Sequence record: MH383160
DNA length: 64,000 nucleotides
Direction: 5' to 3' (one strand)
Origin: Escherichia phage UB
Shown piece by piece: positions 43,995 through 56,463 of the stretch (its first letter is position 1; each line of letters begins with the position of its first letter). The notes beneath the pieces are model-generated. The model saw nothing but the letters and a program-made list of their open reading frames with translations, was not told where the DNA came from and searched no databases. The position numbers and the translations under genes were made by a program.

Positions 43995-44336
43995 TTATTC
44001 GAAATCTTCTGGACCGGACTGATAATCATCTTCACCGTATGCACTTTCTAACCGCTCACCAGTGTAATCATCAGTTAAGCTATCATCCTCATAGTTCACG
44101 TCTACGCCTGTGATGTAAAACTGGCTATCGTCTGGATCATTGAAATTAATTTTTTGGATGTTTACAATAACTGTATTGATGCCCAGGACACCGCCATCAG
44201 CCGTTACAAAGTACTGATAGTTTTCACAACCGCCTGAATTGAAACCGTAATTAATTTCGGCCCGACCATCATTTAAACGCAGTGCCTGGGCAATGATTTC
44301 ATTTTCAAAGTTAGATTGAGCAATTGAGATAGTCAT
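43995..44336 (-). CDS. hypothetical acidic protein
   Basis: ORF track 113 aa; AAGGAA RBS. Confidence 0.6.
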   Translation of the reverse strand: MTISIAQSNFENEIIAQALRLNDGRAEINYGFNSGGCENYQYFVTADGGVLGINTVIVNIQKINFNDPDDSQFYITGVDVNYEDDSLTDDYTGERLESAYGEDDYQSGPEDFE

Positions 44337-44387
44337 GATTCGTTTCCTTATTACCAGGGGAAACCGTTTCCCCTTGCGATGTAAAAC

Positions 44388-44415
44388 ATTATACGCTTAT
44401 TGAGATAGTTTGCAA
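44388..44415 (-). promoter_or_regulatory. sigma70-like promoter
   Basis: minus strand TTGCAA-N16-TATAAT. Confidence 0.5.
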
Positions 44416-44470
44416 GTACTTTTTAAAAATAGTTTTCAGTACTCAAACATTATACAATAGATACACTCCT

Positions 44471-44484
44471 GCACCCTGTGGGCT
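44471..44484. repeat. conserved intergenic box GCACCC-N3-GGGCT
   Basis: gcaccctgtgggct. Confidence 0.5.
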
Positions 44485-44520
44485 AGTGAGCTATCTCTCA
44501 ATGAATATATAATAGCAAAC

Positions 44521-44548
44521 TGGCTGACCGAAGTCAACCACTTTTTCA
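44521..44548. terminator. terminator-like hairpin
   Basis: TGGCTGAC-CGAA-GTCAACCA (one mismatch) followed by T-run; overlaps stop of 44546..44683. Confidence 0.4.
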
Positions 44549-44683
44549 TTTATTTTTAGCTTTTAGAATCGCCGCCTTTCGCGTCATGCCTTGCTTGATG
44601 TACTCATTTACTTTCGCTTTTTTAGCGTTTACCTTGTCTGCTTTCGTTTTAGGAGTACTGTAAATTATACCGTTAGGATTCAT
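44546..44683 (-). CDS. small basic hypothetical protein
   Basis: 45-aa Lys-rich ORF (MNPNGIIYSTPKTKADK...); below ORF-track cutoff. Confidence 0.4.
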   Translation of the reverse strand: MNPNGIIYSTPKTKADKVNAKKAKVNEYIKQGMTRKAAILKAKNK

Positions 44684-44773
44684 TTAAATCACCATAAAGA
44701 ATAGATAGGTTACTAACAATGCCGCGATCATTGCACCGACCAGGGCCGAACTGTAATAAGCTAATGATTTCAT
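44684..44773 (-). CDS. putative small hydrophobic (membrane) peptide
   Basis: 29-aa ORF MKSLAYYSSALVGAMIAALLVTYLFFMVI; ATGA overlap with upstream gene. Confidence 0.35.
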   Translation of the reverse strand: MKSLAYYSSALVGAMIAALLVTYLFFMVI

Positions 44774-44922
44774 TTTTTAGCCTGAAAATAATGTTTAATT
44801 TGAGCGGCGGTCAGTGCACAATTACGCAGGAAGTTTTCTGTATAACTGCGTCGAGTACTGAAAGAAAATTGACCTTTACCGTTCCCGATAGTAACATCAA
44901 ACCGAGCATTATATTGTTTCAT
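44770..44922 (-). CDS. hypothetical protein
   Basis: ORF track ORF trimmed to ATG 44922 (MKQYNARF) with AGGAGA RBS. Confidence 0.5.
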   Translation of the reverse strand: MKQYNARFDVTIGNGKGQFSFSTRRSYTENFLRNCALTAAQIKHYFQAKK

Positions 44923-44972
44923 TTTGTTTCTCCTGTTCTTGGGGAGAATCATTTCTCCCCTTCATGTAAACT

Positions 44973-45000
44973 ATTATACAGTACTAAAAACTAATTGCAA
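44973..45000 (-). promoter_or_regulatory. sigma70-like promoter
   Basis: minus strand TTGCAA-N16-TATAAT; hairpin GGGGAGAAATGATTCTCCCC. Confidence 0.5.
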
Positions 45001-45003
45001 GTA

Positions 45004-45150
45004 TTATTTTTTAGATTTACGTAAACTTTCTACCATCTCAGGAGTAAGCCCCAGCGGGTAGGAAACCACTTCATCCACAAAACGCAAAGGGAATACCCCA
45101 TCTAAAGTTGAACGTGCTTTCTTATTAGTACTCTTTTTTGATGCTTTCAT
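45004..45150 (-). CDS. small hypothetical protein
   Basis: 48-aa ORF (MKASKKSTNKKAR...) with AAGGAA RBS. Confidence 0.4.
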   Translation of the reverse strand: MKASKKSTNKKARSTLDGVFPLRFVDEVVSYPLGLTPEMVESLRKSKK

Positions 45151-45201
45151 TTCATATTCCTTAATTAGTGGGGAGAACTATTTCTCCACTTCATGTAAAC
45201 T

Positions 45202-45229
45202 ATTATACAGTACTAAAAACTAATTGCAA
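45202..45229 (-). promoter_or_regulatory. sigma70-like promoter
   Basis: minus strand TTGCAA-N16-TATAAT. Confidence 0.5.
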
Positions 45230-45429
45230 GTATTATTTTCTAAAAAATGTTTGTATGCTGAATCAACCACTCTTTCGATAACATACGCTAACGGCACGTA
45301 TCCAACTACATGACTACAATAAAAAGGACTACGATTAGAATCATCGTATGCAAATACTTTTTCAGGATCTGCATCAATCACATACATATTAACCTTTAAG
45401 ATGTCGATCTTATCCTGTACAGTAAGCAT
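45220..45429 (-). CDS. hypothetical protein
   Basis: ORF track 69 aa. Confidence 0.55.
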   Translation of the reverse strand: MLTVQDKIDILKVNMYVIDADPEKVFAYDDSNRSPFYCSHVVGYVPLAYVIERVVDSAYKHFLENNTCN

Positions 45430-45434
45430 ATTAA

Positions 45435-45707
45435 TTAACCTTTTAAGTACTGGCTTAAGTAGTCTTTTTGATCTTCGGTGATTGCAGTCATCTTCCCTAG
45501 TACTGGGTTGATGATATAATCCCCTGTAACGTCCTGTGACGCATTCTCAGGGTGTTTAACGGCTGGGGTAGCCATAGCCATTGCCTGGACTTGTTCGACG
45601 CTGTAACGCTCATAAAGGCGGCATTCTTCCGGTGTTAACATAGCATCAGTACGCTTCATCGGTTTAATGATGCTTTCGATCTCATTCAGTACTTGATTAA
45701 CGTTCAT
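45435..45707 (-). CDS. hypothetical protein
   Basis: ORF track 90 aa. Confidence 0.6.
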   Translation of the reverse strand: MNVNQVLNEIESIIKPMKRTDAMLTPEECRLYERYSVEQVQAMAMATPAVKHPENASQDVTGDYIINPVLGKMTAITEDQKDYLSQYLKG

Positions 45708-45758
45708 GGTATAATCCCCAATATAAGCGGCCTAAAACGACCGCTAACGATGTTTTGA

Positions 45759-46028
45759 TTAATAGGTGTAAGGTTGACGCTCAAACAATGATTGCACGTT
45801 GTACGCCCCGCTAATGGGCTTTGCTGGCAAATCGATTTTATATTGTTCACGCTTAAAGATAATAAAACGGCAATTGTTTTTAACATCAAAATTGATTGAA
45901 CGTTCCAGGAGTTTTCCATCGTGCACAAATACAAGATAACCGCTTGGTACTTGTTTTGTAGTACTGGTTGCAACCATAGACCGACGAACATGAGTACCTG
46001 CATCGATTAAAGTACTGATATTTTTCAT
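45759..46028 (-). CDS. hypothetical protein
   Basis: ORF track 89 aa; AAGGAA RBS and promoter module upstream; preferred over overlapping frame 45704..46003. Confidence 0.55.
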   Translation of the reverse strand: MKNISTLIDAGTHVRRSMVATSTTKQVPSGYLVFVHDGKLLERSINFDVKNNCRFIIFKREQYKIDLPAKPISGAYNVQSLFERQPYTY

Positions 46029-46059
46029 TTTAGTTTCCTTAGTTGTCTTGATAAAATCT

Positions 46060-46088
46060 ATTATGCCAGTACTATCAAACTATGTCAA
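46060..46088 (-). promoter_or_regulatory. sigma70-like promoter
   Basis: minus strand TTGACA-N17-CATAAT. Confidence 0.5.
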
Positions 46089-46107
46089 TAGTACTGTGAT
46101 AATATTT

Positions 46108-46251
46108 TTACTTACTTTTTGCTTTCTTAATTGCTTCCACCTGGTCGGCCCATTCTTTACCCCATACTTGTAAATTATAATGGTACTGGCAAAGAGCAAC
46201 GCCCCGCTTTAAACCAGTAATAGATTTTTTACCACATTGACAAGTTTTCAT
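46108..46251 (-). CDS. small hypothetical protein with CxC...CxxH
   Basis: 47-aa ORF MKTCQCGKK...CQYH; AAGGAA RBS. Confidence 0.4.
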   Translation of the reverse strand: MKTCQCGKKSITGLKRGVALCQYHYNLQVWGKEWADQVEAIKKAKSK

Positions 46252-46300
46252 ATTAGTTTCCTTGTAGTGGGGAGAATCATTTCTCCCCTTGATGTAATGT

Positions 46301-46328
46301 ATTATACTTTATTCGATTTACTTTGCAA
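46301..46328 (-). promoter_or_regulatory. sigma70-like promoter
   Basis: minus strand TTGCAA-N16-TATAAT. Confidence 0.5.
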
Positions 46329-46336
46329 GTACTTTT

Positions 46337-46564
46337 TTAATTTAATTCATCCAGGCAAAGGATACGCTCAACGCCCAAATCAGTTAAACTAATGGTCGGC
46401 ACTTGATAGGTTTCAATGTATGCTACAGTTGCCCACTGACCGAACTCATTAACGGCCCAGGTATTCATTGCATTTTGCAATTCCGCACCTGCCTTGTTAG
46501 TAATGACTGCAACTACTTGTTCGTTGCCAGTAGTACCAGATACGCGAGTAATGATAATAGCCAT
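46337..46564 (-). CDS. hypothetical protein
   Basis: ORF trimmed to ATG 46564 (MAIIITRVSG) with AAGGAA RBS; upstream codons are translated 5'UTR. Confidence 0.55.
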   Translation of the reverse strand: MAIIITRVSGTTGNEQVVAVITNKAGAELQNAMNTWAVNEFGQWATVAYIETYQVPTISLTDLGVERILCLDELN

Positions 46565-46619
46565 TGTTTTGATTCCTTTGATTTGGAAGGAGAACCGTTT
46601 TCCCCTCTCGATGTAAAAC

Positions 46620-46647
46620 ATTATACGCTAATCTATTAATCATGCAA
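46620..46647 (-). promoter_or_regulatory. sigma70-like promoter
   Basis: minus strand TTGCAT-N16-TATAAT. Confidence 0.55.
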
Positions 46648-46799
46648 GTACTTTTTATTACTTTTTGCAAAATACTTTAAACGCTCTCAATCGCATTCTA
46701 ACGACCTTAACGCCACCAGCTAGGGCGATGTATCAGATAATCAGTTTAATGCGTTAGAATCGATTATAGGCGGTGCTAGTGGACTGGAATACTATAGAC

Positions 46800-46827
46800 A
46801 CAAAAAAGCCCACTGTTTAAGGTGGGC
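46800..46827 (-). terminator. intrinsic terminator
   Basis: minus strand hairpin AGCCCAC-CTTAAACA-GTGGGCT followed by U6; after stop of 46850..47332. Confidence 0.6.
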
Positions 46828-46849
46828 TATTGATTCAGTACTTTAATTG

Positions 46850-47332
46850 TTATGCTTCAACTTTGCGATGAGCTTCGATCCATTCCTCGCGAGTCATACC
46901 GCTTTCTTTGATAGCGTCCAGTACTACCGCAATGCAGTTACCGCGTACAGGAATCAAATGTTCTTCACCGTTATCAAGTACTACAGTAACACGTTCTTGA
47001 ATCCATTTTTTAGGTTTAGATTCTGGCTTATCTTCACCATACTTAACCGCCAGGGCTTTATGTGCCATTTCTACAACTACTTCCAGATCCAATCCAGACA
47101 CTGCCGCCTGGATACTGTCAATTGTTGCTTGCAGTTCGGCTTCACGGGCTTTTTTCTGTTCTTCCAGTTCTGCTACCTTTTTGGCTTGTAATTCTTTCGC
47201 TTCACTGTACGCAATGTTAAAATTGTTGCGTACTGCTTTCATGGTATCGTTATCCAGGTCAGCCAGCAATTCAGCAGCAATAACAGTATCGTTTGAAATC
47301 AGTGCTTTCAGGAATGATTTTACATTAGCCAT
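46850..47332 (-). CDS. hypothetical protein (Lys/Glu-rich, likely coiled coil)
   Basis: ORF trimmed to ATG 47332 (MANVKSFL) with GAGGAT RBS. Confidence 0.6.
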   Translation of the reverse strand: MANVKSFLKALISNDTVIAAELLADLDNDTMKAVRNNFNIAYSEAKELQAKKVAELEEQKKAREAELQATIDSIQAAVSGLDLEVVVEMAHKALAVKYGEDKPESKPKKWIQERVTVVLDNGEEHLIPVRGNCIAVVLDAIKESGMTREEWIEAHRKVEA

Positions 47333-47455
47333 TTTATAAATCCTCAATTAAAGTTTAGTTTACGTTTATTAGTGTATCAAAGTTTTTTTGACGTGTCCAG
47401 TTTTTCGTTCGACTTACTGGCGGTCTACTTAGTGCTCCCCGTCTTGATGTAATAC

Positions 47456-47483
47456 ATTCTACGCCTTTTTGCGGTATTGTCAA
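47456..47483 (-). promoter_or_regulatory. sigma70-like promoter
   Basis: minus strand TTGACA-N16-TAGAAT; ~110-nt leader. Confidence 0.45.
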
Positions 47484-47534
47484 CTACTTTTTTAAAACTA
47501 TTTTCAAAGTATCTCAGTACTACAATACTACAAA

Positions 47535-47564
47535 AATAAAAAAGCCCACTGTTTAAGGTGGGCT
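47535..47564 (-). terminator. intrinsic terminator
   Basis: second copy of AGCCCAC...GTGGGCT hairpin followed by U-rich run; after stop of 47582..47881. Confidence 0.6.
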
Positions 47565-47581
47565 AGTGATTCAGTACTATA

Positions 47582-47881
47582 TTATAAACAGTTAATTACT
47601 CCGGTGTGCGTTACTTTCTCAGTATCCATAACCGTGACCGATCCACGCTTAGTACTTGCATCATAATAAATTGTTGTGCTACCGTTTTCGTCTTCTTCAT
47701 GGAACGGGCCGTTTTTAAATGCTTCTGGTTGGATCTCTAAATCCTTTAAAACAATCTCGCCCGTACTTTCATTGGTCATCGCAACAGTGCACTGAATGAA
47801 TTTTTCACTACTCACATCTAACGACGCATTAACAGCGAAAGAGGAAACAGATAAAGCCAGGGCGATGATTGCAATTTTCAT
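47582..47881 (-). CDS. putative secreted protein with N-terminal signal peptide
   Basis: ORF track 99 aa; MKIAIIALALSVSSFAVNA-SLD signal-peptide-like N-terminus; AAGGAT RBS. Confidence 0.6.
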   Translation of the reverse strand: MKIAIIALALSVSSFAVNASLDVSSEKFIQCTVAMTNESTGEIVLKDLEIQPEAFKNGPFHEEDENGSTTIYYDASTKRGSVTVMDTEKVTHTGVINCL

Positions 47882-47932
47882 TTGATTATCCTTAGTTACT
47901 AGGGGGAACCTCTCCCCCGTGCTATGTAAAAT

Positions 47933-47960
47933 ATTATACAGTACTAAAAACTAATTGCAA
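47933..47960 (-). promoter_or_regulatory. sigma70-like promoter
   Basis: minus strand TTGCAA-N16-TATAAT. Confidence 0.55.
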
Positions 47961-47965
47961 GTACT

Positions 47966-48202
47966 TTATGATTTTTTATAAAACATTTCGGCAGTGATAT
48001 TTTTACCCGTTGGTTGTACTTTATCCAGAATTTTTTGATGCCCAGGCCGTCCAAATGAATATGATCCGTAAACCGTAAACCAGTAGTTACCCTCAGTGTT
48101 TACATGTACAGCACAATAGGGAACGCCCCGCGATTCATCACTAGTAAAGTGTGCTACCGTTCCCGTTACATTCGAAGTCGTTGATTTGATTTGTTCAAGC
48201 AT
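47966..48202 (-). CDS. hypothetical protein
   Basis: ORF track 78 aa; AAGGAA RBS. Confidence 0.55.
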   Translation of the reverse strand: MLEQIKSTTSNVTGTVAHFTSDESRGVPYCAVHVNTEGNYWFTVYGSYSFGRPGHQKILDKVQPTGKNITAEMFYKKS

Positions 48203-48249
48203 TTTCTTATTCCTTAGTTACCAGGGGAACCGCTCCCCCTATGCAAAAC

Positions 48250-48277
48250 ATTATACGCGTTTAAAAACTAATAGCAA
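48250..48277 (-). promoter_or_regulatory. sigma70-like promoter
   Basis: minus strand TTGCTA-N16-TATAAT. Confidence 0.5.
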
Positions 48278-48310
48278 GTATTTTAATAAAAAGTATTTGA
48301 AAAATAATTG

Positions 48311-48339
48311 TTGACAACTGCATCCAGTACTGGCATAAT
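48311..48339 (+). promoter_or_regulatory. sigma70-like promoter on plus strand (divergent)
   Basis: plus strand TTGACA-N17-CATAAT; no plus-strand ORF downstream. Confidence 0.4.
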
Positions 48340-48345
48340 ACTTAT

Positions 48346-48453
48346 ATAAAGACGATACAGTCACTAACCCACAGGGTGCCGAGATCCGTCTATTAAATGA
48401 TTCAGTACTGAAAAAGTAACGGGGAGTTATTATCTCCCCGCGTTGTTATTTGG
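48346..48453 (+). ncRNA. candidate small non-coding RNA
   Basis: ~105 nt between plus-strand promoter and hairpin GGGGAG-TTATTA-CTCCCC (48421..48439) with U-rich tail; contains ACCCACAGGGTGC box; no ORF. Confidence 0.3.
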
Positions 48454-48667
48454 TAAGGTATAAACAGAAGTCACCTTTATTTGCTACGCCGCCAGTGTAA
48501 CGCGATGAATAGTTAGAAATATCTTGTACTTCTGCTATTACCAGTGTATCATCATTCATTTCGTCGCAGAAGCAAACGGCTGGATCTTTAACGCCGATAT
48601 TGTCGGCATGTTCCCGCATAGATTTAACCAGTGCTTCCAGTTGAGAAAGAGTAGTGATATTAGCCAT
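48446..48667 (-). CDS. hypothetical protein
   Basis: ORF trimmed to ATG 48667 (MANITTLSQ) with GAGGAA RBS. Confidence 0.55.
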   Translation of the reverse strand: MANITTLSQLEALVKSMREHADNIGVKDPAVCFCDEMNDDTLVIAEVQDISNYSSRYTGGVANKGDFCLYLTK

Positions 48668-48717
48668 TGTATTTTCCTCATTACCAGGGAGAACCATTTC
48701 TCCCCTCTATGTAAAAC

Positions 48718-48745
48718 ATTATACAGTACTAAAAACTAATTGCAA
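48718..48745 (-). promoter_or_regulatory. sigma70-like promoter
   Basis: minus strand TTGCAA-N16-TATAAT. Confidence 0.55.
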
Positions 48746-48752
48746 GTACTTT

Positions 48753-48941
48753 TTAATTAAATTCCATAAAATCATTCTCAACGTGCACAACAATCTGATT
48801 ATTTTTAAAGTCCGCAGAAAACTCAATACAATCATATACTGCTTTTTCTGTTACCATACTATGAGTACCAATCGGATTAATAGGGGATTGAATTGTTTCA
48901 ATCTCGTTACCTTGTTCATTAACAATTAAAATATTAAACAT
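48753..48941 (-). CDS. hypothetical protein
   Basis: ORF track 62 aa; AGGAG RBS. Confidence 0.55.
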   Translation of the reverse strand: MFNILIVNEQGNEIETIQSPINPIGTHSMVTEKAVYDCIEFSADFKNNQIVVHVENDFMEFN

Positions 48942-48978
48942 AACTTTTACTCCTGATAGTGTTTACCTGATATAAAGT

Positions 48979-49006
48979 ATTATACGCCTTTATTGCTTAG
49001 TGTCCA
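48979..49006 (-). promoter_or_regulatory. sigma70-like promoter
   Basis: minus strand TGGACA-N16-TATAAT. Confidence 0.45.
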
Positions 49007-49203
49007 GTACTTTTTAAAACATAATCAAAGACACTTCTCACATCATTGATCATCGCCTGGCGGTTAGCAGGTAAAGCATCAGGATCACCACTATCCCAAG
49101 CCTGTATGAAGCCTCCAAGCTCTGAATAAACTTTATTACGCAATCCGATTAACTGTAATTCTTTTTCTTCAAGCTCTTTGATACGTTCAATTAAATCACT
49201 CAT
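48997..49203 (-). CDS. hypothetical protein
   Basis: ORF trimmed to ATG 49203 (MSDLIERIKELEEKE) with AAGGAT RBS. Confidence 0.55.
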   Translation of the reverse strand: MSDLIERIKELEEKELQLIGLRNKVYSELGGFIQAWDSGDPDALPANRQAMINDVRSVFDYVLKSTGH

Positions 49204-49220
49204 TAGATAATCCTTAGTAC

Positions 49221-49508
49221 TTAACTGTAAGATCCGCAACGGTCGCAGTAGTGCCCGTCTTCCTCGTCATCGTCAACGAATTGCCCGACGAAATGATCTA
49301 CTTTCGCTTTCAGGTTATTATAATCGTTTTCTACTTCCTTTAATCGTTCCTGGTAGTATTCCAGTGCCTCAAGATACGCCGCCTCAGCAGTTTTTGCACG
49401 CATAGCTAAATTCATGCCACGCGATTCATCATAAAGCCAATAACCATCAGTGCACTGGCTAATAGATAATGACTTGCTTAATACTGTATAGCTAATTACT
49501 TTGCTCAT
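49221..49508 (-). CDS. hypothetical protein
   Basis: ORF trimmed to ATG 49508 (MSKVISYTVL) with GAGGAA RBS; C-terminal HYCDRCGSYS. Confidence 0.55.
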   Translation of the reverse strand: MSKVISYTVLSKSLSISQCTDGYWLYDESRGMNLAMRAKTAEAAYLEALEYYQERLKEVENDYNNLKAKVDHFVGQFVDDDEEDGHYCDRCGSYS

Positions 49509-49526
49509 TAGATATTCCTCAGTAAA

Positions 49527-49546
49527 GGCGGGAACCATTCCCCGCC
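49527..49546 (-). other. intercistronic GC hairpin
   Basis: GGCGGG-N8-CCCGCC between 49564..50175 and 49221..49508; no promoter in this gap. Confidence 0.4.
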
Positions 49547-49563
49547 ATTATCTCAGTACTAAA

Positions 49564-50175
49564 TTAATATGCGATTGATTCTACTACGCCATCAATAACA
49601 TTGAATTGATACTCGTTACCCTCGATCAGTGCCGTGATGTTCTCAGTAGTGAATTGATCCTCATATGCATTCTCTAAATCACGGTACAACTTGCGGGATA
49701 ATTCACGAATAGTTTCAGTGAGTAGTTCCTCAAGCTCATTAACTAACGTTTCTTGTTTTGCGGTTAAATCAGTGTAAGCCGATTCAATGTACCCGCTTAC
49801 AGTATTCTCATGCGAGTAGTGGGAGTGAGAACGCTTTACACTCATCGGCAAATCATCTTCATTCAGCAGGTGACGGATTGAGCGATACTTAGTTAATGCT
49901 CTTACCTTGCGTAAAAACTTCACTGCGTCAACGTGGTCAGTACTGATTGATGCACCGTCACCTTGCGACCAAAAACCACTGAATCGTAAATCTGCGTCAT
50001 TAATGCCATATTCCGGTAGTACTGTTTCTTTATAGTATTCAATTTCACTTTCAGAAAAATAATCATCGTTTAAGTTTTTTTCACGTTCCCGAACCAGTTC
50101 GATAGCTGACGTTTGTTGTTCTGCGTTCAATTCAGAAAAAGCCATAACATAAGTAGTAGTAGTGATAGTTTTCAT
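49564..50175 (-). CDS. hypothetical acidic protein
   Basis: ORF track 203 aa; GAGGGT RBS. Confidence 0.6.
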   Translation of the reverse strand: MKTITTTTYVMAFSELNAEQQTSAIELVREREKNLNDDYFSESEIEYYKETVLPEYGINDADLRFSGFWSQGDGASISTDHVDAVKFLRKVRALTKYRSIRHLLNEDDLPMSVKRSHSHYSHENTVSGYIESAYTDLTAKQETLVNELEELLTETIRELSRKLYRDLENAYEDQFTTENITALIEGNEYQFNVIDGVVESIAY

Positions 50176-50207
50176 TTTGTAACCCTCATTCAGTAGTTGA
50201 TGTAAGT

Positions 50208-50235
50208 ATTATACGCTTTTAAAAACAATTGTCAA
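50208..50235 (-). promoter_or_regulatory. sigma70-like promoter
   Basis: minus strand TTGACA-N16-TATAAT. Confidence 0.55.
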
Positions 50236-50317
50236 ACTATTTTATCAGGGGAGTTTTTCGTGTGCCTTACTCCTGGGCTACTTAACGGGGAGTTACTTAT
50301 TTCGTCCCCCGTCCTGA
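50236..50317 (-). repeat. ~80-nt structured non-coding unit between tandem promoters (copy 2)
   Basis: near-identical to 40277..40358, with the same flanking promoter arrangement. Confidence 0.4.
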
Positions 50318-50325
50318 TGTAAAAC

Positions 50326-50353
50326 ATTATACGCCTTTAAACATAGTTTGCAA
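50326..50353 (-). promoter_or_regulatory. sigma70-like promoter
   Basis: minus strand TTGCAA-N16-TATAAT. Confidence 0.5.
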
Positions 50354-50402
50354 GTACTTTTTGAAAAATAGTTTTTAATCACTTTTATATAGATACACTC
50401 CC

Positions 50403-50416
50403 GCACCCTATGGGCT
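50403..50416. repeat. conserved intergenic box GCACCC-N3-GGGCT
   Basis: gcaccctatgggct; here followed by a different hairpin CCGGCTT-N17-AAGCCGG (50429..50459). Confidence 0.45.
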
Positions 50417-50476
50417 ATCGCCTTGTGTCCGGCTTGTAAGTATTATCTCACTAAGCCGGATAATGGTCAAGTACTT

Positions 50477-50743
50477 TTATTCAAGTACTGCTATCTTTTT
50501 AGTACTGTACACAGTAACACGGTTGCCCTTGCGGTCGTGCTTTATTTCTACCACTCGACGCGATACACTATCAGGACTTTTTAACGCCGATAACCAGTAC
50601 TGTAAGGATCTGGCTGTACTTTGCTTTACTACCGCCCAACGTTTACCACGTTCCGATTGCACGCCCATATCTTTAAACGTTGCCCCGTCCTGGCGAGCGG
50701 CGATCCGAGCTTGTTCACGCGTTGCAAAGTATATAATATTCAT
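50477..50743 (-). CDS. hypothetical protein, FATRE...HDRKGNRVTVYS paralog
   Basis: ORF trimmed to ATG 50743 (MNIIYFATREQARIAARQDGATFKDMG); paralog of 38767..39162. Confidence 0.55.
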   Translation of the reverse strand: MNIIYFATREQARIAARQDGATFKDMGVQSERGKRWAVVKQSTARSLQYWLSALKSPDSVSRRVVEIKHDRKGNRVTVYSTKKIAVLE

Positions 50744-50825
50744 GCTGTTATCCCATCGTTGATGTATGAATAAAATCCTATTATAAAGTACTATCACCGT
50801 GCAATAGTACTTTAAATAAATTCTA

Positions 50826-51065
50826 TTACATTCCAACCATTGCAGCACGGATCGCCGTAGTGCTATATTTGAATCCGTCCGGCGTTTTATCTTGTCCAGT
50901 CTGTTCTAAAAATAGCATCATATGACGGGCCGCATCATTGCGATTAGTGTTAGCGGCAATAAAGTCCTGGGCCAACCGGTATAATGATTCATCGTTATTA
51001 ATCCAAAGGCTTACATTCCATTGAGTTTTGTTAGCGTGACCTAAGAACATTTTTGATTTAGCCAT
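50826..51065 (-). CDS. hypothetical protein
   Basis: ORF track 79 aa; GAGGAT RBS. Confidence 0.55.
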   Translation of the reverse strand: MAKSKMFLGHANKTQWNVSLWINNDESLYRLAQDFIAANTNRNDAARHMMLFLEQTGQDKTPDGFKYSTTAIRAAMVGM

Positions 51066-51120
51066 TTTTAAATCCTCGTTTGATTTGAGGCGGGAATAGT
51101 TCCCGCTCTCGATGTAAAGT

Positions 51121-51148
51121 ATTATACGCTATTTGTTAGTACTGTCAA
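51121..51148 (-). promoter_or_regulatory. sigma70-like promoter
   Basis: minus strand TTGACA-N16-TATAAT. Confidence 0.55.
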
Positions 51149-51163
51149 ACTACTTTTTAAAAC

Positions 51164-51526
51164 TTATTCGTAAATCTTGCCACTGTCAGCCCATACCAGG
51201 AAACGAGGCATATTATCCCATGCATCTTGTTTTAAATTTAAACCGTGTAATACTTCTGTACTTTCCATTCCTGGTACTGGTTTACTATACACCGCGAACA
51301 ATTCACCCATATACTGATAAGCCATCGTTAAATCACTTGCGATCATCTTATGGATCATCGCATCAAGCATCACGGTAGCGGCGTATTGTTCACGCTTAAG
51401 CGGTAACATTGCAATAAGTTCCCGATAAGCTGAAATGTGAATTTTTACCGTTTCTGCCGGAAGATCTTTCATCTCGTCGCGGAAGTTAACCAGGTTAGCA
51501 ATAATTTTATTGATTTGAGTAGCCAT
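51164..51526 (-). CDS. hypothetical protein
   Basis: ORF trimmed to ATG 51526 (MATQINKIIANL); first gene of the early-like block. Confidence 0.6.
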   Translation of the reverse strand: MATQINKIIANLVNFRDEMKDLPAETVKIHISAYRELIAMLPLKREQYAATVMLDAMIHKMIASDLTMAYQYMGELFAVYSKPVPGMESTEVLHGLNLKQDAWDNMPRFLVWADSGKIYE

Positions 51527-51581
51527 CGTTTTAATCTCTCTTAAAGTGTAGCGGGAAGTGTTCCCGCTCTCGATGTAAAAC

Positions 51582-51609
51582 ATTCTACACCTTTCCCAAT
51601 ACTTTGCAA
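51582..51609 (-). promoter_or_regulatory. sigma70-like promoter
   Basis: minus strand TTGCAA-N16-TAGAAT. Confidence 0.5.
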
Positions 51610-51845
51610 GTACTTTCTACAAATACTTTTAAAATAGTTTTCTTTCTATATAGGAGTACTATCATTCAGTACTGCTACACTAGAATCAATCAACCAAATC
51701 ACTACTATACCCCATAAAACGGCCTCAGACGCATTCTAACGCATTAATACACCTAAGCTATACATTTGCACCGCCACCAGCTAACCAGGGCTTTACGATG
51801 CGTTTAAACGCGTTAAATTATTTTCAATTATTTTGTTTTTTGCTA

Positions 51846-51873
51846 TTGACTCAGTACTAAAAAAGCGTATAAT
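51846..51873 (+). promoter_or_regulatory. sigma70-like promoter on plus strand
   Basis: plus strand TTGACT-N16-TATAAT, directed toward the iteron region; no ORF downstream. Confidence 0.4.
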
Positions 51874-52061
51874 TACTACATAGACGCGAGAAAGCGGATA
51901 TCCCAAGGGGTGCGGAATTGTGCCCAAAATTCAAGATATAAAAAAAAGGATACACTCCCGCACCCTAGCAGGTCAAAGCACTTTCTCAGTACTGAATCAT
52001 AGTACCATAGTACGCCCCAGGATGGCAAGCAAATTAATTAAAACTTTTTTCATCCAGGGTA

Positions 52062-52089
52062 TTGCTTTATTTTTCCAGTACTGTATAAT
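52062..52089 (+). promoter_or_regulatory. sigma70-like promoter on plus strand
   Basis: plus strand TTGCTT-N16-TATAAT followed by AGCCCACCGGGTGC box (52116..52129). Confidence 0.4.
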
Positions 52090-52187
52090 AGTTTCATCAA
52101 GTCGAGAAAGACTATAGCCCACCGGGTGCATAGTTACGCCCAAAATTTCAGTACTAGATTATTTTTTAAAAATATTCATCCAGGCGG

Positions 52188-52216
52188 TTGACATTGCCCC
52201 CAGTTTATTAGATAAT
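52188..52216 (+). promoter_or_regulatory. sigma70-like promoter on plus strand
   Basis: plus strand TTGACA-N17-GATAAT immediately upstream of the iteron-like repeats. Confidence 0.4.
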
Positions 52217-52312
52217 GATTCCAGATTCAGAAAAATCTAACTCCAGATACTGCGGGGAAACTATCCCCACGCGGTAGGGGAACTATTGGAAAAAAACAAA
52301 ATAAAATTTTGA

Positions 52313-52500
52313 TTTAGCCGTCTATACTTCCAGACGTGTAACCATCTAGCCGTTTAGCCGTCCAAACGTCTAGCCATACAGCCATCCAGAAATCTAGCCG
52401 TTTAGCCGTCTAGATAGATAGCCATCTTTACTTCCAGACTTCTGGAGGGCTAGACATATCTACGTCCAAAATCCATCCAGGGTAACTACGCCCAAAATCC
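52313..52500. repeat. iteron-like direct repeat array (candidate replication origin or protein-binding array)
   Basis: TAGCCGT x5 and TAGCCAT x2; 19-mer ATCTAGCCGTTTAGCCGTC repeated at 52344 and 52392 (48-bp period); CCAGA motifs; non-coding. Confidence 0.45.
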
Positions 52501-52622
52501 GTCAGTACTATACCATAGATCTATCTTTTGAAAGGGAGTATTCAGTACTGCCACAATAGCCCTCACTGTTACTGTAGGAGGATGAAGACTATCATGTAGT
52601 ACTGAATACTGTTAGAGGGAAC

Positions 52623-52642
52623 CCACCAGCTTGTGCTGGTGG
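52623..52642. other. strong GC hairpin
   Basis: perfect 8-bp stem CCACCAGC-TTGT-GCTGGTGG, no U-run. Confidence 0.4.
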
Positions 52643-52826
52643 CATAATGCTTTAGATTAAAATCAGTACTAATACCATTCTGTTAATATCAGTACTGTTA
52701 TTACGATTTTCATATGAGGTTCAAAAAGATGTACCACCACAGGAGGAACTATCTTTTCTGTACTGTCTCACGACAGGAGGTAGAGTAAATGAATTGTTCG
52801 CAGCAACTCATCTCTCTATGTAGAAC

Positions 52827-52854
52827 ATTATACAGTACTGAATCATAATGTCAA
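52827..52854 (-). promoter_or_regulatory. sigma70-like promoter
   Basis: minus strand TTGACA-N16-TATAAT, directed leftward into the non-coding iteron region. Confidence 0.45.
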
Positions 52855-53492
52855 TAGCTTTCTTTCATTATTCAGTACTGATATTCTTGAGAACTACCCG
52901 ACTACAAACATCATTATATCCCACAAATCATAAACGTCCCAACGTAAATTTCAACTTTCGAAGATCCAACTTTTATTTCATAGGTACTCCAAAATTTTTA
53001 GGATCGAGATTTAGGATGGAGTACTAACCAACTTTTTGCTGGAGCCTCAAGGGGTAATGGAATTTTACCCCGAAGGGTAAAGGGGTAATTGAAATTAAGG
53101 TGAAAGTAATAATTCAGTACTAATCATTGCGTGATTACTTTTGATTACATTTGATGTAATTTGAAAAATGGAAAAGGAGCTTGGAAACTACAAAGTACGG
53201 CAGACTTCCTCTGCCTACTTAGTGGCATATTAGTACTGAATCATTCACACACATTTCCGTGCATTCTTGAGCAATCTTGTCTATACTAATCAGTACTGAA
53301 TCATATATAATCATTCTGTGATTCTACGGTGCTCATATAAATGTTTATATATGATTACTTATGACTACCTATGATTACGGGGTTTAGCCTGGGGAGAATC
53401 CTAGTGATCGCATTTGTCCAGGCTGAATTTTAACAATTCGCCTGTACATAAAGGTTGTTCACTAGGAGCTTCCCCTGTCTACTTGTGTTTAA

Positions 53493-53693
53493 TTACTTCC
53501 TATATATAAGCATTAAGATATAGTAGTACTGATTGTACTGTACATTCTCTTTAATATTATAAGGGTCTATAGCAATCTCGGTACATCTGTTAAATGCATA
53601 TCTATTAAATGCCAGTGGAATTATAGATCTAATCCATACTTGTTCATTTTCTTTTAGTTTACTTATATAGAAGTTTTTATACTCTTTATGCAT
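53493..53693 (-). CDS. MHKEYY family small protein (hypothetical)
   Basis: ORF track 66 aa; MHKEYKNFY...YYILMLIYRK. Confidence 0.55.
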   Translation of the reverse strand: MHKEYKNFYISKLKENEQVWIRSIIPLAFNRYAFNRCTEIAIDPYNIKENVQYNQYYYILMLIYRK

Positions 53694-53706
53694 AGTATTA
53701 TGTCTA

Positions 53707-53889
53707 TTAATATGATAGTACTAGTGTTAGTACTGAGCACAATTTTTCTTTATAGTTCTTAGGGTATATAGAATCTTTTATGCACTCATTGAAGTGCCAT
53801 AGGTATAATCTTGGGTCGCATTCTTTATATATTCTTACGGGGACGAATGTTAGTTTTCTTATATAGAATTCTTTATGTTCTTTATTCAT
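53707..53889 (-). CDS. MHKEYY family small protein (hypothetical)
   Basis: ORF track 60 aa; MNKEHKEFY... Confidence 0.55.
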   Translation of the reverse strand: MNKEHKEFYIRKLTFVPVRIYKECDPRLYLWHFNECIKDSIYPKNYKEKLCSVLTLVLSY

Positions 53890-53890
53890 A

Positions 53891-54079
53891 TTAGTACCTG
53901 AATATAAGTAGGATTATGTTATAGTACTGGTTAGTACTGCAATGATTCTCTATACATCGATTAACAGTTATGGAATAGCTATATCTGGCGTAAGCATTAT
54001 CCAGCGGGATTTTACATTGAGCACTTAGAGAAAGTACAGTAGGTAGTGTATTCAAATAGAAGTCTTTGTAATTATTCAT
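53891..54079 (-). CDS. MHKEYY family small protein (hypothetical)
   Basis: ORF track 62 aa; MNNYKDFY...YNIILLIFRY. Confidence 0.55.
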   Translation of the reverse strand: MNNYKDFYLNTLPTVLSLSAQCKIPLDNAYARYSYSITVNRCIENHCSTNQYYNIILLIFRY

Positions 54080-54281
54080 ACAGGAATAGTATACCTATGA
54101 TGCCGGAGTACAGGTTAGTACTGTTACCATCTTCATTTGCGTTTAAAGTCATTTGAATACAATTATTGTAGCATACTCTGCCGAAATATGTATTAGTACT
54201 TAAAGGTGGTGTAGTCCTTAGAAACATTTGTTCTGAGGGGCTTATGTATTTGGAGTAGAATTCTTTATGTTCTTTATTCAT
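54072..54281 (-). CDS. MHKEYY family small protein (hypothetical)
   Basis: ORF track 69 aa; MNKEHKEFY...; near-duplicate of 57255..57464. Confidence 0.55.
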   Translation of the reverse strand: MNKEHKEFYSKYISPSEQMFLRTTPPLSTNTYFGRVCYNNCIQMTLNANEDGNSTNLYSGIIGILFLYE

Positions 54282-54286
54282 ATTAG

Positions 54287-54472
54287 TTAGTGTCTGTATA
54301 TAAGTAATAGTAAGAATACGTACTGCACATCTTCATCTTTAGTATTGAGTACTGTACGTATTGCGTCATGGAACAAGAATATAGTACTTGGGTCATGAAA
54401 ATTTAAAGGGGTTCTGGGTACGGCACATTTGTAGTTCCCTTTAACAAATTGTGTGTAGTATTCTCTATGCAT
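54287..54472 (-). CDS. MHKEYY family small protein (hypothetical)
   Basis: ORF track 61 aa; MHREYY...LLLLIYRH. Confidence 0.55.
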   Translation of the reverse strand: MHREYYTQFVKGNYKCAVPRTPLNFHDPSTIFLFHDAIRTVLNTKDEDVQYVFLLLLIYRH

Positions 54473-54473
54473 A

Positions 54474-54659
54474 TTAGTACCTATATATTAGGGCGAGAAT
54501 GTAGTACAATTCATATGGAATGTAATTTGGGGTGATCGCACACTGTGTATGGTAAATGAATTGTTCGGTATTTTTCTTATCCTTGATATCTATTGGGATT
54601 TGTGGTATAAGCATTTGGGAGTTTAGATCGAGATGGCTTAAGTAGAATTCTTTATGCAT
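54474..54659 (-). CDS. MHKEYY family small protein (hypothetical)
   Basis: ORF track 61 aa; MHKEFY...YYILALIYRY. Confidence 0.55.
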   Translation of the reverse strand: MHKEFYLSHLDLNSQMLIPQIPIDIKDKKNTEQFIYHTQCAITPNYIPYELYYILALIYRY

Positions 54660-54668
54660 ATTGTTCTC

Positions 54669-54857
54669 TTAGAATACGAAAGCTAGGTACAGGGTATGAT
54701 ACAGTACTCGATGATAGCTGTCAAAATCTAGTATACATGCTTTAGTACACATAGTAAAATACACTTTATCATTTTGTGCATTGATACCGCGAGGTTTATC
54801 TAATAGATTAGTTCTGAGGTACATTGGGAAATATTTTGTGTAGTATTCTTTATGCAT
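54669..54857 (-). CDS. MHKEYY family small protein (hypothetical)
   Basis: ORF track ORF trimmed to ATG 54857 (MHKEYYTKYFPMYL). Confidence 0.55.
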   Translation of the reverse strand: MHKEYYTKYFPMYLRTNLLDKPRGINAQNDKVYFTMCTKACILDFDSYHRVLYHTLYLAFVF

Positions 54858-54858
54858 G

Positions 54859-55041
54859 TTAGTACCTGAATATAAGTAGGATAGTGTTATATAGCTGGTC
54901 ATAACTACTACTATTTTCTATACTTCGTTCTATGCAGTTATTGAATCCAAGTACTGCCAAATCGTTATCCAGAGGGACTTTATATCTGGCGTAGTGTTCA
55001 AAAATGCTGGGGAGAAATTGTTTGTAGTATTCTTTGTGCAT
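54859..55041 (-). CDS. MHKEYY family small protein (hypothetical)
   Basis: ORF track 60 aa; MHKEYYKQF...YNTILLIFRY. Confidence 0.55.
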   Translation of the reverse strand: MHKEYYKQFLPSIFEHYARYKVPLDNDLAVLGFNNCIERSIENSSSYDQLYNTILLIFRY

Positions 55042-55051
55042 ATTGTTCTCT

Positions 55052-55240
55052 TTAGTACTTGAATATTAGGGCGAGGATGTAATACAGTTTATATGTTCTA
55101 TCCTCGTACATTAGGGTGTACTTAGTACATTCTTGGAACATTGTTTTTGCGTCATCTTTTATGCCCAATGTAACGTTTGGTATAAGGCTTTGTAGATACA
55201 TTGGGAGTTTCTCTATGTAGTATTCTTTATAGTTGTTCAT
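55052..55240 (-). CDS. MHKEYY family small protein (hypothetical)
   Basis: ORF track 62 aa; MNNYKEYYIEKLPMYL...YYILALIFKY. Confidence 0.55.
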   Translation of the reverse strand: MNNYKEYYIEKLPMYLQSLIPNVTLGIKDDAKTMFQECTKYTLMYEDRTYKLYYILALIFKY

Positions 55241-55248
55241 ATTATGTG

Positions 55249-55428
55249 TTATTTCGTGAAAACAAGGGTTAGTACTGCATAGTACAAGTCATACGTATCT
55301 TTAGGGTTAATAGCACCTTTAATACATTCTTTCATTAATTCATTATAGATAATTTTAGTACTGAAGGTATTGGATGTTACTATATCGGAATTAAGGTACG
55401 ACAAGTAGAATTCTTTATGTTTGTGCAT
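55249..55428 (-). CDS. MHKEYY family small protein (hypothetical)
   Basis: 59-aa ORF MHKHKEFYLSYL...YYAVLTLVFTK; below ORF-track cutoff. Confidence 0.45.
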   Translation of the reverse strand: MHKHKEFYLSYLNSDIVTSNTFSTKIIYNELMKECIKGAINPKDTYDLYYAVLTLVFTK

Positions 55429-55429
55429 A

Positions 55430-55615
55430 TTAGTACTTATATATTAGTAAAAGGATGTGATACAGTACTCGATTATAGTCTTCAATATATATCGAGGATT
55501 TAGTGCACTGAATGAAGTAGTCTTTTTCGTAGTTTTTTTCTATACCCAATGGTTCTGTTGGTAGAAGGTGTTGGAGATACATTGGGAGTTTCTCTATGTA
55601 GTATTCTTTATGCAT
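55430..55615 (-). CDS. MHKEYY family small protein (hypothetical)
   Basis: ORF track ORF trimmed to ATG 55615 (MHKEYYIEKLPMYL). Confidence 0.55.
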   Translation of the reverse strand: MHKEYYIEKLPMYLQHLLPTEPLGIEKNYEKDYFIQCTKSSIYIEDYNRVLYHILLLIYKY

Positions 55616-56273
55616 AGTTTGTAATATACGTAATGAGGTGATGCATTTTCTTATTAGTACTGATAATTTCCTGTACATGTTTTGTCAGATTGTACGCGTT
55701 TTTATAGAGTACTGGATTATCGATTACAGTACTGTACATGAATAGTTCTTCTTCCTGTAGTTCTTTGTGTTCTAGTTCTTTGAGGAATTGCAGTACTGTA
55801 TCAGTTTCGTCAGTAGGTTGTGCTTGCCAGAAGTGCATTTTCTCGTGTACTTTTTCTGATCCTACGTAGTATCCATCACCGATTTGGAATTGAGCACTAC
55901 TGATATCATTTGGTGTATTACAATTCACGAATAGGTATACGTTTCCATAAGAGATATTCAAAACACACGGGATACCATTTAACTGTATAGTTAAGCCGAA
56001 ATATACGTTTTTTATATTTTTAGTACTAGTATTAGTACTCAATACTTTTAAATCAGTATTATAGATATTCGCATAATCAATAGAGATATTATTTTTCTTC
56101 AAGTACGATTTGAGGTTCTTAGATACGAGAACTGTACTGAATTTATCCTTTTTATTTCGTTTCTTTAGTACATTAGGGTGATAAGTATATGAAGATGTAA
56201 CTGATTCTGCTTGAATACTGTTGAGGTACTTAAAGTGCTTAAGGTATTGTTTACTGTGTGCATTAAGTTTCAT
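55608..56273 (-). CDS. FQ-motif family protein (hypothetical), outlier copy inside MHKEYY array
   Basis: ORF track 221 aa; motif EEELFMYSTVID. Confidence 0.6.
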   Translation of the reverse strand: MKLNAHSKQYLKHFKYLNSIQAESVTSSYTYHPNVLKKRNKKDKFSTVLVSKNLKSYLKKNNISIDYANIYNTDLKVLSTNTSTKNIKNVYFGLTIQLNGIPCVLNISYGNVYLFVNCNTPNDISSAQFQIGDGYYVGSEKVHEKMHFWQAQPTDETDTVLQFLKELEHKELQEEELFMYSTVIDNPVLYKNAYNLTKHVQEIISTNKKMHHLITYITNYA

Positions 56274-56283
56274 TTGGTTTCCT

Positions 56284-56463
56284 TTATATAGATGCCAGGG
56301 CGAGGATTTCCCTGTAGGGATTATCTTGTGTTAGTACAGAATAAATGCAGCTATTGAGATTAATATTTTTAGTACTTTTTGTTCCTAGTTTGTAGTAATC
56401 AACGAATGTGTCGTACATGAAACGGTCTTTTATGGTTATACGTTCTATATAGAATTGTTGCAT
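56284..56463 (-). CDS. MHKEYY family small protein, divergent (hypothetical)
   Basis: 59-aa ORF MQQFYIERITIKDRF...; below ORF-track cutoff. Confidence 0.4.
   Translation of the reverse strand: MQQFYIERITIKDRFMYDTFVDYYKLGTKSTKNINLNSCIYSVLTQDNPYREILALASI

Follow-up and report, generated by a model that had tools for sequence, protein, structure and literature searches.

The plus-strand segment 48311-48453 in the genome of Escherichia phage UB (sequence record MH383160) carries a promoter, a short stretch free of open reading frames and a hairpin, which raises the question whether it is a small RNA gene of its own or a part of something larger. The DNA analysed here, called the window in the following, is a stretch of 64,000 nucleotides of this phage. 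A sequence-only reading had proposed a candidate sRNA of ~105 nt at this place, had counted three related units and had suggested a covariance analysis across them. Our analysis leaves us highly confident that the flagged locus is one copy of a conserved cassette in which a promoter is coupled to a structured RNA module; what such a cassette might do is answered more tentatively below. The parts of the flagged locus are the following.

48250-48277, minus strand: divergent gene promoter TTGCTA-N16-TATAAT, serving the ORF 47966-48202(-)
48311-48339, plus strand: sigma-70 promoter with TTGACA (48311-48316), a 17-nt spacer and CATAAT (48334-48339)
48324-48333, plus strand: palindrome CCAGTACTGG within the promoter spacer
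48331-48332, plus strand: TG of the extended -10 inside the spacer, at -15/-14
48346, plus strand: predicted transcription start A, 7 nt past the -10 and aligned with a conserved CAT
48351-48362, plus strand: P1 hairpin GAC-GAUACA-GUC with variable stem and purine-rich loop
48363-48367, plus strand: linker ACUAA, its final A being the first base of P2
48367-48379, plus strand: box ACCCACAGGGTGC, consisting of the P2 hairpin A-CCC-ACA-GGG-U (48367-48377) followed by GC
48380-48393, plus strand: CGAGA, a purine-rich 5-mer, followed by the tail UCCGUCUAU, which departs from the family consensus (N)UG-UAUCUAU
48403-48412, plus strand: CAGTACTGAA, unchanged across all terminator-capped copies
48420-48452, plus strand: bidirectional intrinsic terminator with the hairpin at 48420-48440 and then the plus tail GCGUUGUUAUUU; called on both strands

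The promoter side had been described correctly: TTGACA-N17-CATAAT scores 11/12 and has an extended -10 in addition, it stands back to back with the minus-strand gene promoter 48277-48250, the conserved box follows downstream and no plus-strand ORF of at least 30 aa lies between 48340 and 48453. A promoter-like match by itself is weak evidence at this locus, as 65 such matches were counted in 13 kb with 47 expected. The box with at most three mismatches occurs 13 times with 4.8 expected, and the flagged copy reaches 56.1 bits in the covariance model described below with an E-value of ~1e-11, which is rough according to the tool's own statement. The proposed hairpin GGGGAG/CTCCCC is present as well, only that its loop is TTATTAT (7 nt) and not TTATTA; its stem C-GGGGAG / CTCCCC-G is G+C-rich and has 7 bp around the loop UUAUUAU, and a terminator is annotated at the matching position in G17 and Muenster. 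Of the claimed U-rich tail the composition holds, but the plus-strand run is interrupted. The minus strand has the better run of U; the terminator is therefore bidirectional and serves mainly the convergent gene 48446-48697(-), and with the poor tail on the plus strand termination may be only partial there. At the sequence level, the flagged copy has what is expected of an sRNA, namely its own promoter, no ORF, an intrinsic terminator and a length within 50-300 nt.

A covariance model built from 69 distinct copies and run without filters gave nine hits of 41-56 bits in the 64-kb window and thus corrects the former count of three. Beyond these, one degenerate copy reaches 16.7 bits and nothing more lies above 13 bits. 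The copies had first been collected with box-based patterns, by which the apparent invariance of the box is inflated; the unfiltered search brought up no divergent copies in the window. The two homologous units that had been named before are both real, the minus-strand one with its box at 42819-42807 and the plus-strand one with its box at 52117-52129, and the former makes up an 80-nt inverted pair with the flagged locus (42807-42886 versus 48300-48379, 84% complementary). All copies in the window are given here by position.

34907-34995, minus strand: cassette, module 34907-34953; 48.3 bits
37160-37250, minus strand: cassette, module 37160-37210; 52.5 bits
40432-40520, minus strand: cassette, module 40432-40480, with a Chi site (40430-40423) just 3' of the module; 41.5 bits
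42789-42875, minus strand: cassette, promoter 42875-42847, module 42839-42789; 51.8 bits
44453-44540, minus strand: cassette, module 44453-44503, with the -35 inside the upstream terminator hairpin; 50.7 bits
48347-48397, plus strand: module of the flagged copy; 56.1 bits
50385-50470, minus strand: cassette, module 50385-50435; 51.2 bits
51846-51931, plus strand: cassette, module 51881-51931; 45.2 bits
51993-51942, minus strand: degenerate convergent copy; 16.7 bits
52062-52147, plus strand: cassette, module 52097-52147, in the ORF-poor terminal stretch; 50 bits

All nine good copies lie inside the equivalent of the terminal repeat (~33510-53219), where they sit between small PHROG or ORFan genes, and every CCCANNGGGTG in the window is found ~15-23 nt downstream of the predicted start site of a same-strand TTGAC(A/T)-N17-xATxAT promoter. 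Six copies are co-oriented with the gene that follows, and in these the module leads into an AT-rich stretch with CAGTACTG and then into a separate gene promoter, with no terminator between. Three of the nine are not upstream of a co-oriented gene: the flagged copy is inverted, and the two other plus-strand copies point outward in an ORF-free stretch of 1.6 kb at the genome end, which contains 8-bp periodic repeats. Its own promoter, the fixed 5' position of the module, an orientation independent of genes and the promoters that the co-oriented genes have for themselves all argue that the unit exists to make an RNA (or to have its DNA transcribed) and is not the 5' UTR of a gene. The cassettes travel with other DNA motifs, namely Chi and AGTACT, and the latter occurs 262 times in the window with 48 expected.

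A query of 301 nt around the flagged locus matched 44 phage records, and the window belongs to an Asteriusvirus (PBECO4/121Q-like) jumbo phage of 350 kb. Escherichia and Salmonella jumbo phages of 310-386 kb belonging to the genus Asteriusvirus (vB_Ec-M-J, PBECO4, 121Q, G17 and others) show 88-97% identity over the whole query, and the Klebsiella phages of the genus Alcyoneusvirus (RaK2, Muenster, KP13-7) show ~75% identity only in query positions 126-226, corresponding to 48325-48425 of the window. The cassette unit is the only part of the neighbourhood that can still be aligned at the DNA level with the Klebsiella phages. In RaK2 and Muenster the orthologue has kept its inverted orientation relative to the neighbours, and its terminator stem is a different one. 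The counterpart in vB_Ec-M-J lies inside the annotated direct terminal repeat (1-21525), and BLAST with the ends of the vB_Ec-M-J record places its position 1 at 53219 and the inner end of the repeat at ~33510 of the window. The genes around the flagged locus are all small minus-strand genes, each with a hairpin in its 5' UTR and with a promoter TTGCAA-N16-TATAAT of its own; both flanking ORFs (47966-48202 and 48446-48697) have matches among PHROG families of unknown function. The model matched 81 times in the fetched related loci and 25 more times in other jumbo-phage contigs, so that overall ~100 copies were found in RaK2-like jumbo phages infecting Escherichia, Klebsiella and other hosts, on contigs of 345-378 kb or on metagenomic fragments. 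As orthologues are among them, these counts are not independent events, and distinct sequences and permutation controls were used in the following.

Several identities could be discarded by searches. An origin from the host or mimicry of a host RNA was rejected, as neither 5,426 E. coli genomes nor plasmids contain a match to the module, and in a scan of 185,579 species genomes (one each) the exact pattern turned up only as 13 single hits, which are scattered over unrelated MAGs and do not exceed the number we estimate for chance. The same holds for membership in an Rfam family, with no match in the whole window at the gathering thresholds of Rfam 15 and, in the permissive E-value mode, isolated hits only for 48280-48470 and 33500-53300 (E >0.1, far below threshold, none of them common to the copies). 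A tRNA or tmRNA was rejected too, none having been found. A lambda nut site does not fit, since boxA patterns occur at chance level and none adjoins the module on its strand. Convergent copies of the module itself are the only extended antisense targets in the window. In the literature the box sequence turned up in unrelated primers only, and no expression data were found there for any phage of this group, Asteriusvirus and Alcyoneusvirus transcriptomes included.

The comparison of the copies shows where the constraint lies. All 79 distinct copies carry a sigma-70 promoter at the same distance, its score being at least 10/12 in 87% of them compared with 2% of random positions. Six nucleotides after the -10 follows the conserved CAT (C63/A67/T63 of 69 copies, alignment columns 21-23), the A of which is likely to be +1. 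The first hairpin, P1, has a stem of 3-5 bp and a purine-rich loop of 4-9 nt (mostly 6-7; GAGAAA, AGAACAA, AGAUAA), and a short form without most of the stem differs from the long form by 7 nt. We tested P1 by a hairpin search combined with shuffles and permutations: a stem of at least 3 bp is present in 60 of the 69 copies compared with 38 +/- 3 in shuffles (maximum 47 in 500), one of at least 4 bp in 34 copies compared with 13 +/- 3, and in the three loop-proximal pairs 146 of 153 cells pair compared with 65 +/- 6 when the 3' strands are permuted among the copies. Each level shows all four types of Watson-Crick pair, and the 69 copies have 28 distinct stems between them. The linker aCUAr connects P1 to P2, which reads rCCC-ANN-GGGU followed by GC and in which 98% of the cells pair in the model-based alignment including non-pattern copies. 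The closing pair of P2 alternates between A-U and G-U, its loops have 3-4 nt of free sequence, and two copies from different phages carry ACCU...AGGU. P1 therefore shows covariation, and P2 two independent double changes from C-G to U-A.

Downstream of the GC, five residues that are mostly purines lead through a U to the tail GUAUCUAU, which varies almost only by transitions (U51/C18, A47/G22, U52/C15). Together with the invariant GGGUGC the tail can form a six-pair alternative helix, P3, and 92% of the cells pair in the structure of P1 and P3 compared with 27-52% when the partners are slid. Five of the six pairs of P3 vary one-sidedly and nearly half of its cells are G-U, which would be A-C mismatches on the opposite strand, so that the constraint on the tail acts on the transcript of the promoter strand. 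P2 and P3 share the GGG and differ little in energy, with means of -3.0 versus -2.7 kcal/mol; the common GUAUCU form of P3 reaches -4.1 kcal/mol, and P3 is the more stable one in 45 of 68 copies. In the flagged copy the tail is CCGUCU, for which P3 is unfavourable (+0.7), and here CGUCU (48387-48391) is complementary to AGACG (48350-48354), a pairing that may take the place of P3. Complementarity of at least 5 bp between 5' part and tail occurs in 23 of 69 copies compared with 10 +/- 2.7, in three different registers, and a general helix closing the 5' end with the tail is possible. P3 might also be read as the terminator of an attenuator, a reading that was rejected for the majority of copies, in which P3 is not followed by a U-run; in a few, 51947-51966(-) and L005:2689, such a run is present.

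Column mutual information gave a subfamily signal only, and RNAalifold on a plain MAFFT alignment recovers P2 alone, P1 being missed because it lies in different registers. We argue for selection at the RNA level from the covariation of P1, the variable loop length of P2 and the wobble-tolerant tail taken together. A coding function was rejected: the plus strand is without an ORF, 7 nt separate the short form from the long one in length, the copies share no conserved frame and a start codon is missing from the flagged copy.

In 19 of 78 distinct copies, a hairpin that resembles a terminator and has a T-rich tail comes within 100 nt downstream. About a dozen of the capped copies, from Asteriusvirus, Alcyoneusvirus and other large contigs, have the same spacing of ~26 nt between module and hairpin, and the uncapped copies run into the promoter of the next gene. 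Eight aligned capped copies share the promoter, the module and the invariant AGTACTGAA, and their terminator stems differ (GGGGAG/CUCCCC, GGGGAUC/GAUCCCC, GGGAGAC/GUCUCCC) with double-sided changes in four of seven pairs. Because of the fixed spacing across genera and the compensatory stems, a stand-alone RNA of ~100 nt is predicted to be a recurrent and conserved arrangement, although a minority one with about a quarter of the copies. For the flagged copy itself a discrete RNA of ~105 nt (48346 to ~48450) is probable and, given that the layout of promoter, module and terminator recurs in all sampled phage genera, a reasonable prediction. The original idea of a ~105-nt sRNA has therefore survived in part: the unit is ORF-less and has a near-consensus promoter, a conserved structured segment and a compensatory terminator stem, but its plus-strand U-tail is poor and it is not a singular gene, as it is one inverted copy of a cassette that is present nine times per repeat and mostly without terminator.

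What would such a cassette be for? Our preferred reading, to which we give slightly less than an even chance for the whole statement including the mode of action, is that of a multi-copy cassette in the terminal repeat, that is in the early region, the module of which would be an abundant immediate-early RNA serving as a binding site or decoy. The flagged locus is one inverted, terminator-capped copy in a RaK2-like terminal repeat, where the RNA polymerase of the host would start at ~A48346 and would stop, at least partly, at the hairpin 48420-48440, resulting in a non-coding RNA of ~105 nt. The module would act as RNA independently of any downstream gene, with the invariant P2 and the tail as putative binding site or decoy for a component that is conserved across Enterobacterales or among these phages. 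The role of P1 would be to shield the 5' end and that of the high copy number to provide dosage, and accessibility would be modulated by the alternative between P2 and P3. A bolder version seems unlikely to us. In it the cassettes would be a new class of self-contained promoter-plus-nascent-RNA devices, with P2 and tail acting directly on conserved machinery of the host, namely RNA polymerase (put-like, though unrelated) or the 30S subunit; with about nine of them in each terminal repeat, the DNA that enters the cell first would reprogram the host ahead of the synthesis of any phage protein.

The position of the module just past the promoter also fits an action in cis on RNA polymerase, which runs counter to the preferred reading. 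The nascent two-hairpin RNA might bind its own polymerase in a put-like manner and confer resistance to pauses or terminators, leading to read-through in the early region, and we regard this as rather unlikely. Two stem-loops directly past early promoters at a fixed promoter distance are what it asks for, the early region is full of terminators, and a sequence that stays unchanged in phages of different Enterobacterales is in keeping with a partner conserved to the degree of RNA polymerase; downstream of P2 there is also G-G, 8 nt, U-G, which we take to resemble the consensus elemental pause. However, three of the nine copies in the window point away from genes or toward the genome end, and the inverted copies lead to well-formed terminators at a fixed spacing conserved across genera, where read-through would yield antisense RNA only. 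Nearly every early gene has its own promoter, making read-through unneeded. The put RNAs of ~70 nt likewise consist of two stem-loops, with putL just downstream of PL (PMC9378689), whereas the module is shorter (~50 nt).

The conserved part of the module also resembles a masked translation-initiation region, a second observation that runs counter to the preferred reading, and the module might accordingly be a miniature initiation site or minigene that loads or traps ribosomes or sequesters a rare tRNA through peptidyl-tRNA drop-off, as the bar minigenes of phage lambda do. Here the UAA of the linker together with GGGUG would be the Shine-Dalgarno-like sequence, split by the CCCANN arm and controlled in its access by P2 and P3, with NUG five nt on, often followed by UAU CUA and a stop. 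Same-type promoters without module drive their genes through a leader AUCAAGACAACUAAGGAAAC...AUG, and the module therefore looks like such a leader with CCCANN inserted. Of 79 distinct copies, 44 have AUG, GUG or UUG at this position, with M-Y-L-stop found 14 times and start-stop 6 times, and the first base of this triplet is almost never C while the second is U in 63 of 69. Yet 35 of the 79 copies (44%) have no start codon, among them the flagged copy and all its Asteriusvirus orthologues with AUC at this position, and UAUCUA is kept even in copies without a start codon. A minigene or leader peptide would call for a conserved frame length, but the ORF comprises a single codon at the one extreme and more than 22 at the other. 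Third codon positions show no lower conservation than the other two, and the putative Shine-Dalgarno sequence is engaged in pairing whether P2 or P3 forms. We therefore hold this explanation to be improbable.

Little credence is also given to a role of the cassette as DNA, either as a PeSL-like recombination substrate by which small early genes are shuffled or as an operator for a DNA-binding regulator, with the transcript as a by-product. It would account for cassettes between small ORFan genes, for the -35 elements that are embedded in a terminator hairpin in several copies (GGGATTGACTCCGGTCAGTCCC-TTTGCTATTAT), for copies that vary among close relatives (G17, 121Q and EJP2 have a convergent copy that the window lacks), for the 80-nt inverted pair and for the co-occurring AGTACT and Chi motifs. 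But homogenisation of repeats fails to explain why the P1 stem varies freely with its pairing kept, or why the tail shows transitions only and so keeps G-U pairing on one strand; a P2 loop of 3-4 nt would alter the half-site spacing for a dimeric protein, and the box is conserved between genera and its flanks are not. Finally, origins of T4 combine a promoter with an unwinding element and have been proposed to work through R-loops, but a primer or R-loop transcript for replication origins, although suggested by the AT-rich DNA after each module and by the two plus-strand copies that face the repeat-bearing ORF-free stretch at the genome end, is very improbable, as nine origins within 17 kb are implausible, most copies have no iterons, the R-loop origins of T4 are not known for conserved hairpins and capping by a terminator defeats priming.

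If the module is indeed a functional RNA, as the preferred reading has it, it would represent an undescribed structured RNA family that is conserved throughout a clade of 350-kb phages of Escherichia, Klebsiella and other hosts, with about nine copies per terminal repeat and each of them behind one of the strongest-looking host promoters. It would then be a candidate for the earliest, translation-independent step of host takeover or anti-defence in phages that are relevant for therapy, and it would offer a handle on the control of the early region. The RNA module is without counterpart in the description of the PeSL cassettes, in Rfam and in the literature searched.

Compared with known systems, the flagged copy resembles terminator-ended sRNAs of the Hfq type in that, within ~105 nt, it combines its promoter and structured 5' part with a single-stranded stretch rich in A/U and a terminator hairpin; it differs from them by the interrupted U-tail, and the module family by being mostly without terminators and without Rfam match. 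The only related precedent for ORF-less RNAs from the terminal repeat of a jumbo phage in the literature searched is PA5oct, in which such RNAs make up 2-5% of the phage reads (PMC7318152). An identity with these RNAs was rejected, as the covariance model finds nothing in the terminal repeat of PA5oct and its ORF-less RNA region has no sequence relation to the module. Like boxB of the lambda nut sites, P1 is a short promoter-proximal hairpin of which the stem varies and the loop is GNRA-like and rich in purines, but the order of the elements is different, the invariant P2 has no counterpart in nut and no N-like protein was identified for the module. As in the lambda bar minigenes, 20 of 79 copies combine a Shine-Dalgarno-like motif, a start codon, 0-2 sense codons and a stop, with the rare CUA as last sense codon, but the module is conserved at the level of nucleotides and not of the frame. 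With putL and putR of phage HK022, compared here by description, it shares the two stem-loops just past early promoters (P1 and P2 at ~+5 to +32) in an RNA that host RNA polymerase would make, and in neither case does a protein gene have to be invoked (PMC9378689). The put sites are however ~70 nt long, present twice per genome and oriented with their operons, whereas the module has ~50 nt and nine copies per repeat, a third of which are not gene-oriented and some of which are capped by a terminator.

The comparison with PeSL, the promoter-early stem-loop cassette of T4-type phages (Arbiol et al. 2010, PMC2839356; Comeau et al. 2014, PMC4122927), reaches further. Both are short repeated composites of terminator and near-consensus sigma-70 promoter, both lie among small ORFan early genes in plastic regions, and in both presence and orientation vary between close relatives. 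PeSL consist of promoter and stem-loop only (PMC4122927), whereas the jumbo-phage cassette adds a conserved transcribed module of ~50 nt, so that it shares the near-consensus promoter and the composite build of PeSL and goes beyond the restriction to these two parts; its best-conserved part is RNA (P2 box and tail), with covariation of the RNA type and conservation across genera. The intergenic DNA of the early region appears here as a set of few shuffled motifs, namely promoters embedded in terminators, the module, AGTACT palindromes and oriented Chi sites, which extends the PeSL idea from T4-type to jumbo phages.

Several of the cassettes, each a near-consensus sigma-70 promoter followed by the ~50-nt conserved RNA module, carry their -35 hexamer within the 5' arm of the terminator hairpin of the upstream gene (GGGATTGACTCCGGTCAGTCCC then TTTGCTATTAT), so that termination and re-initiation share a stretch of only ~40 bp. 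Promoters of the same type also occur without a module, with the sequence CCAGTACTGG/TG-CATAAT, and these drive a gene directly via a 27-nt leader, AUCAAGACAACUAAGGAAACUAAA-AUG, whose start and ACUAAGG are similar to the 5' part and linker of the module.

44521-44540, 40480-40520, 37215-37250 and 34960-34995, minus strand: cassettes with the -35 hexamer in a terminator hairpin
46060-46088 and 43641-43669, minus strand: cassette-type promoters without module

A second recurring element is the palindrome AGTACT, often found as CAGTACTG, of which we counted 262 copies in the window versus 48 +/- 7 expected, with the highest density at 32000-64000 when the whole window was scanned. It is located 10–15 nt 3' of the end of every module, immediately 5' of the -35 hexamer of gene promoters (AAAAAGTACTTGCAA) and, for one class of promoters (CCAGTACTGGCATAAT), within the spacer, and in some relatives a terminator stem is built from two of its copies. 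AGTACT looks like a putative site of a DNA-binding regulator.

In the related phages G17, 121Q and EJP2 we found modules arranged as convergent pairs with a spacing of 58 nt, the transcripts of which would be mutually antisense, and in the window a remnant of such a module is present, where P3 (the alternative helix of module tail and GGGUGC) and a run of eight U read as a terminator.

L001:5704-5807, G17: convergent module pair
L006:22273-22374, 121Q: convergent module pair
L005:8959-9070, EJP2: convergent module pair
51942-51993, window: remnant of convergent module

A 61-aa gene (270) that spans the pair in the 121Q annotation is probably spurious.

No plausible gene was found in 51620-53219, the final 1.6 kb ahead of the position matching the left genome end, and this stretch is a candidate for a packaging or end-processing region or for an origin. 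It contains the following features:

within 51620-53219: two outward-facing modules
52188-52216: additional promoter, TTGACA-N17-GATAAT
52315-52470: 8-bp periodic repeats TAGCCGTC/TAGCCATC (repeat family D5)
about 51921, 52137, 52462 and 52488: recurring motif ACGCCCAAAAT
within 51620-53219: inverted pair of Chi sites

At 53493-56654, minus strand, ~14 ORFs of mostly ~60 aa follow each other in a row with repeated intergenic sequences, corresponding to genes 249-265 in the 121Q annotation.

The E. coli Chi sequence GCTGGTGG has 13 matches in the whole window (0.4 expected), three of which (63043-63563, plus strand) lie inside GGT/GCT-rich, glycine-rich repeats and are probably incidental. The other ten fall within the terminal-repeat equivalent (span 34871-52642), at least six of them being intergenic or in ORF-free DNA.

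34871, 35093, 36672, 40423, 41691, 43154, 46713, 51774 and 52623, minus strand: Chi
52635, plus strand: Chi

Two Chi sites in the window directly follow modules on their 3' side, and the spacer of module promoters holds Chi or its complement in related phages. Chi stops RecBCD depending on the direction from which the enzyme enters. The nine minus-strand sites are oriented such that they would stop RecBCD coming from the inner boundary of the repeat, which in the second repeat copy is the right genome end, and the orientation of the single plus-strand site, 580 bp from the left end, suits RecBCD entry there.
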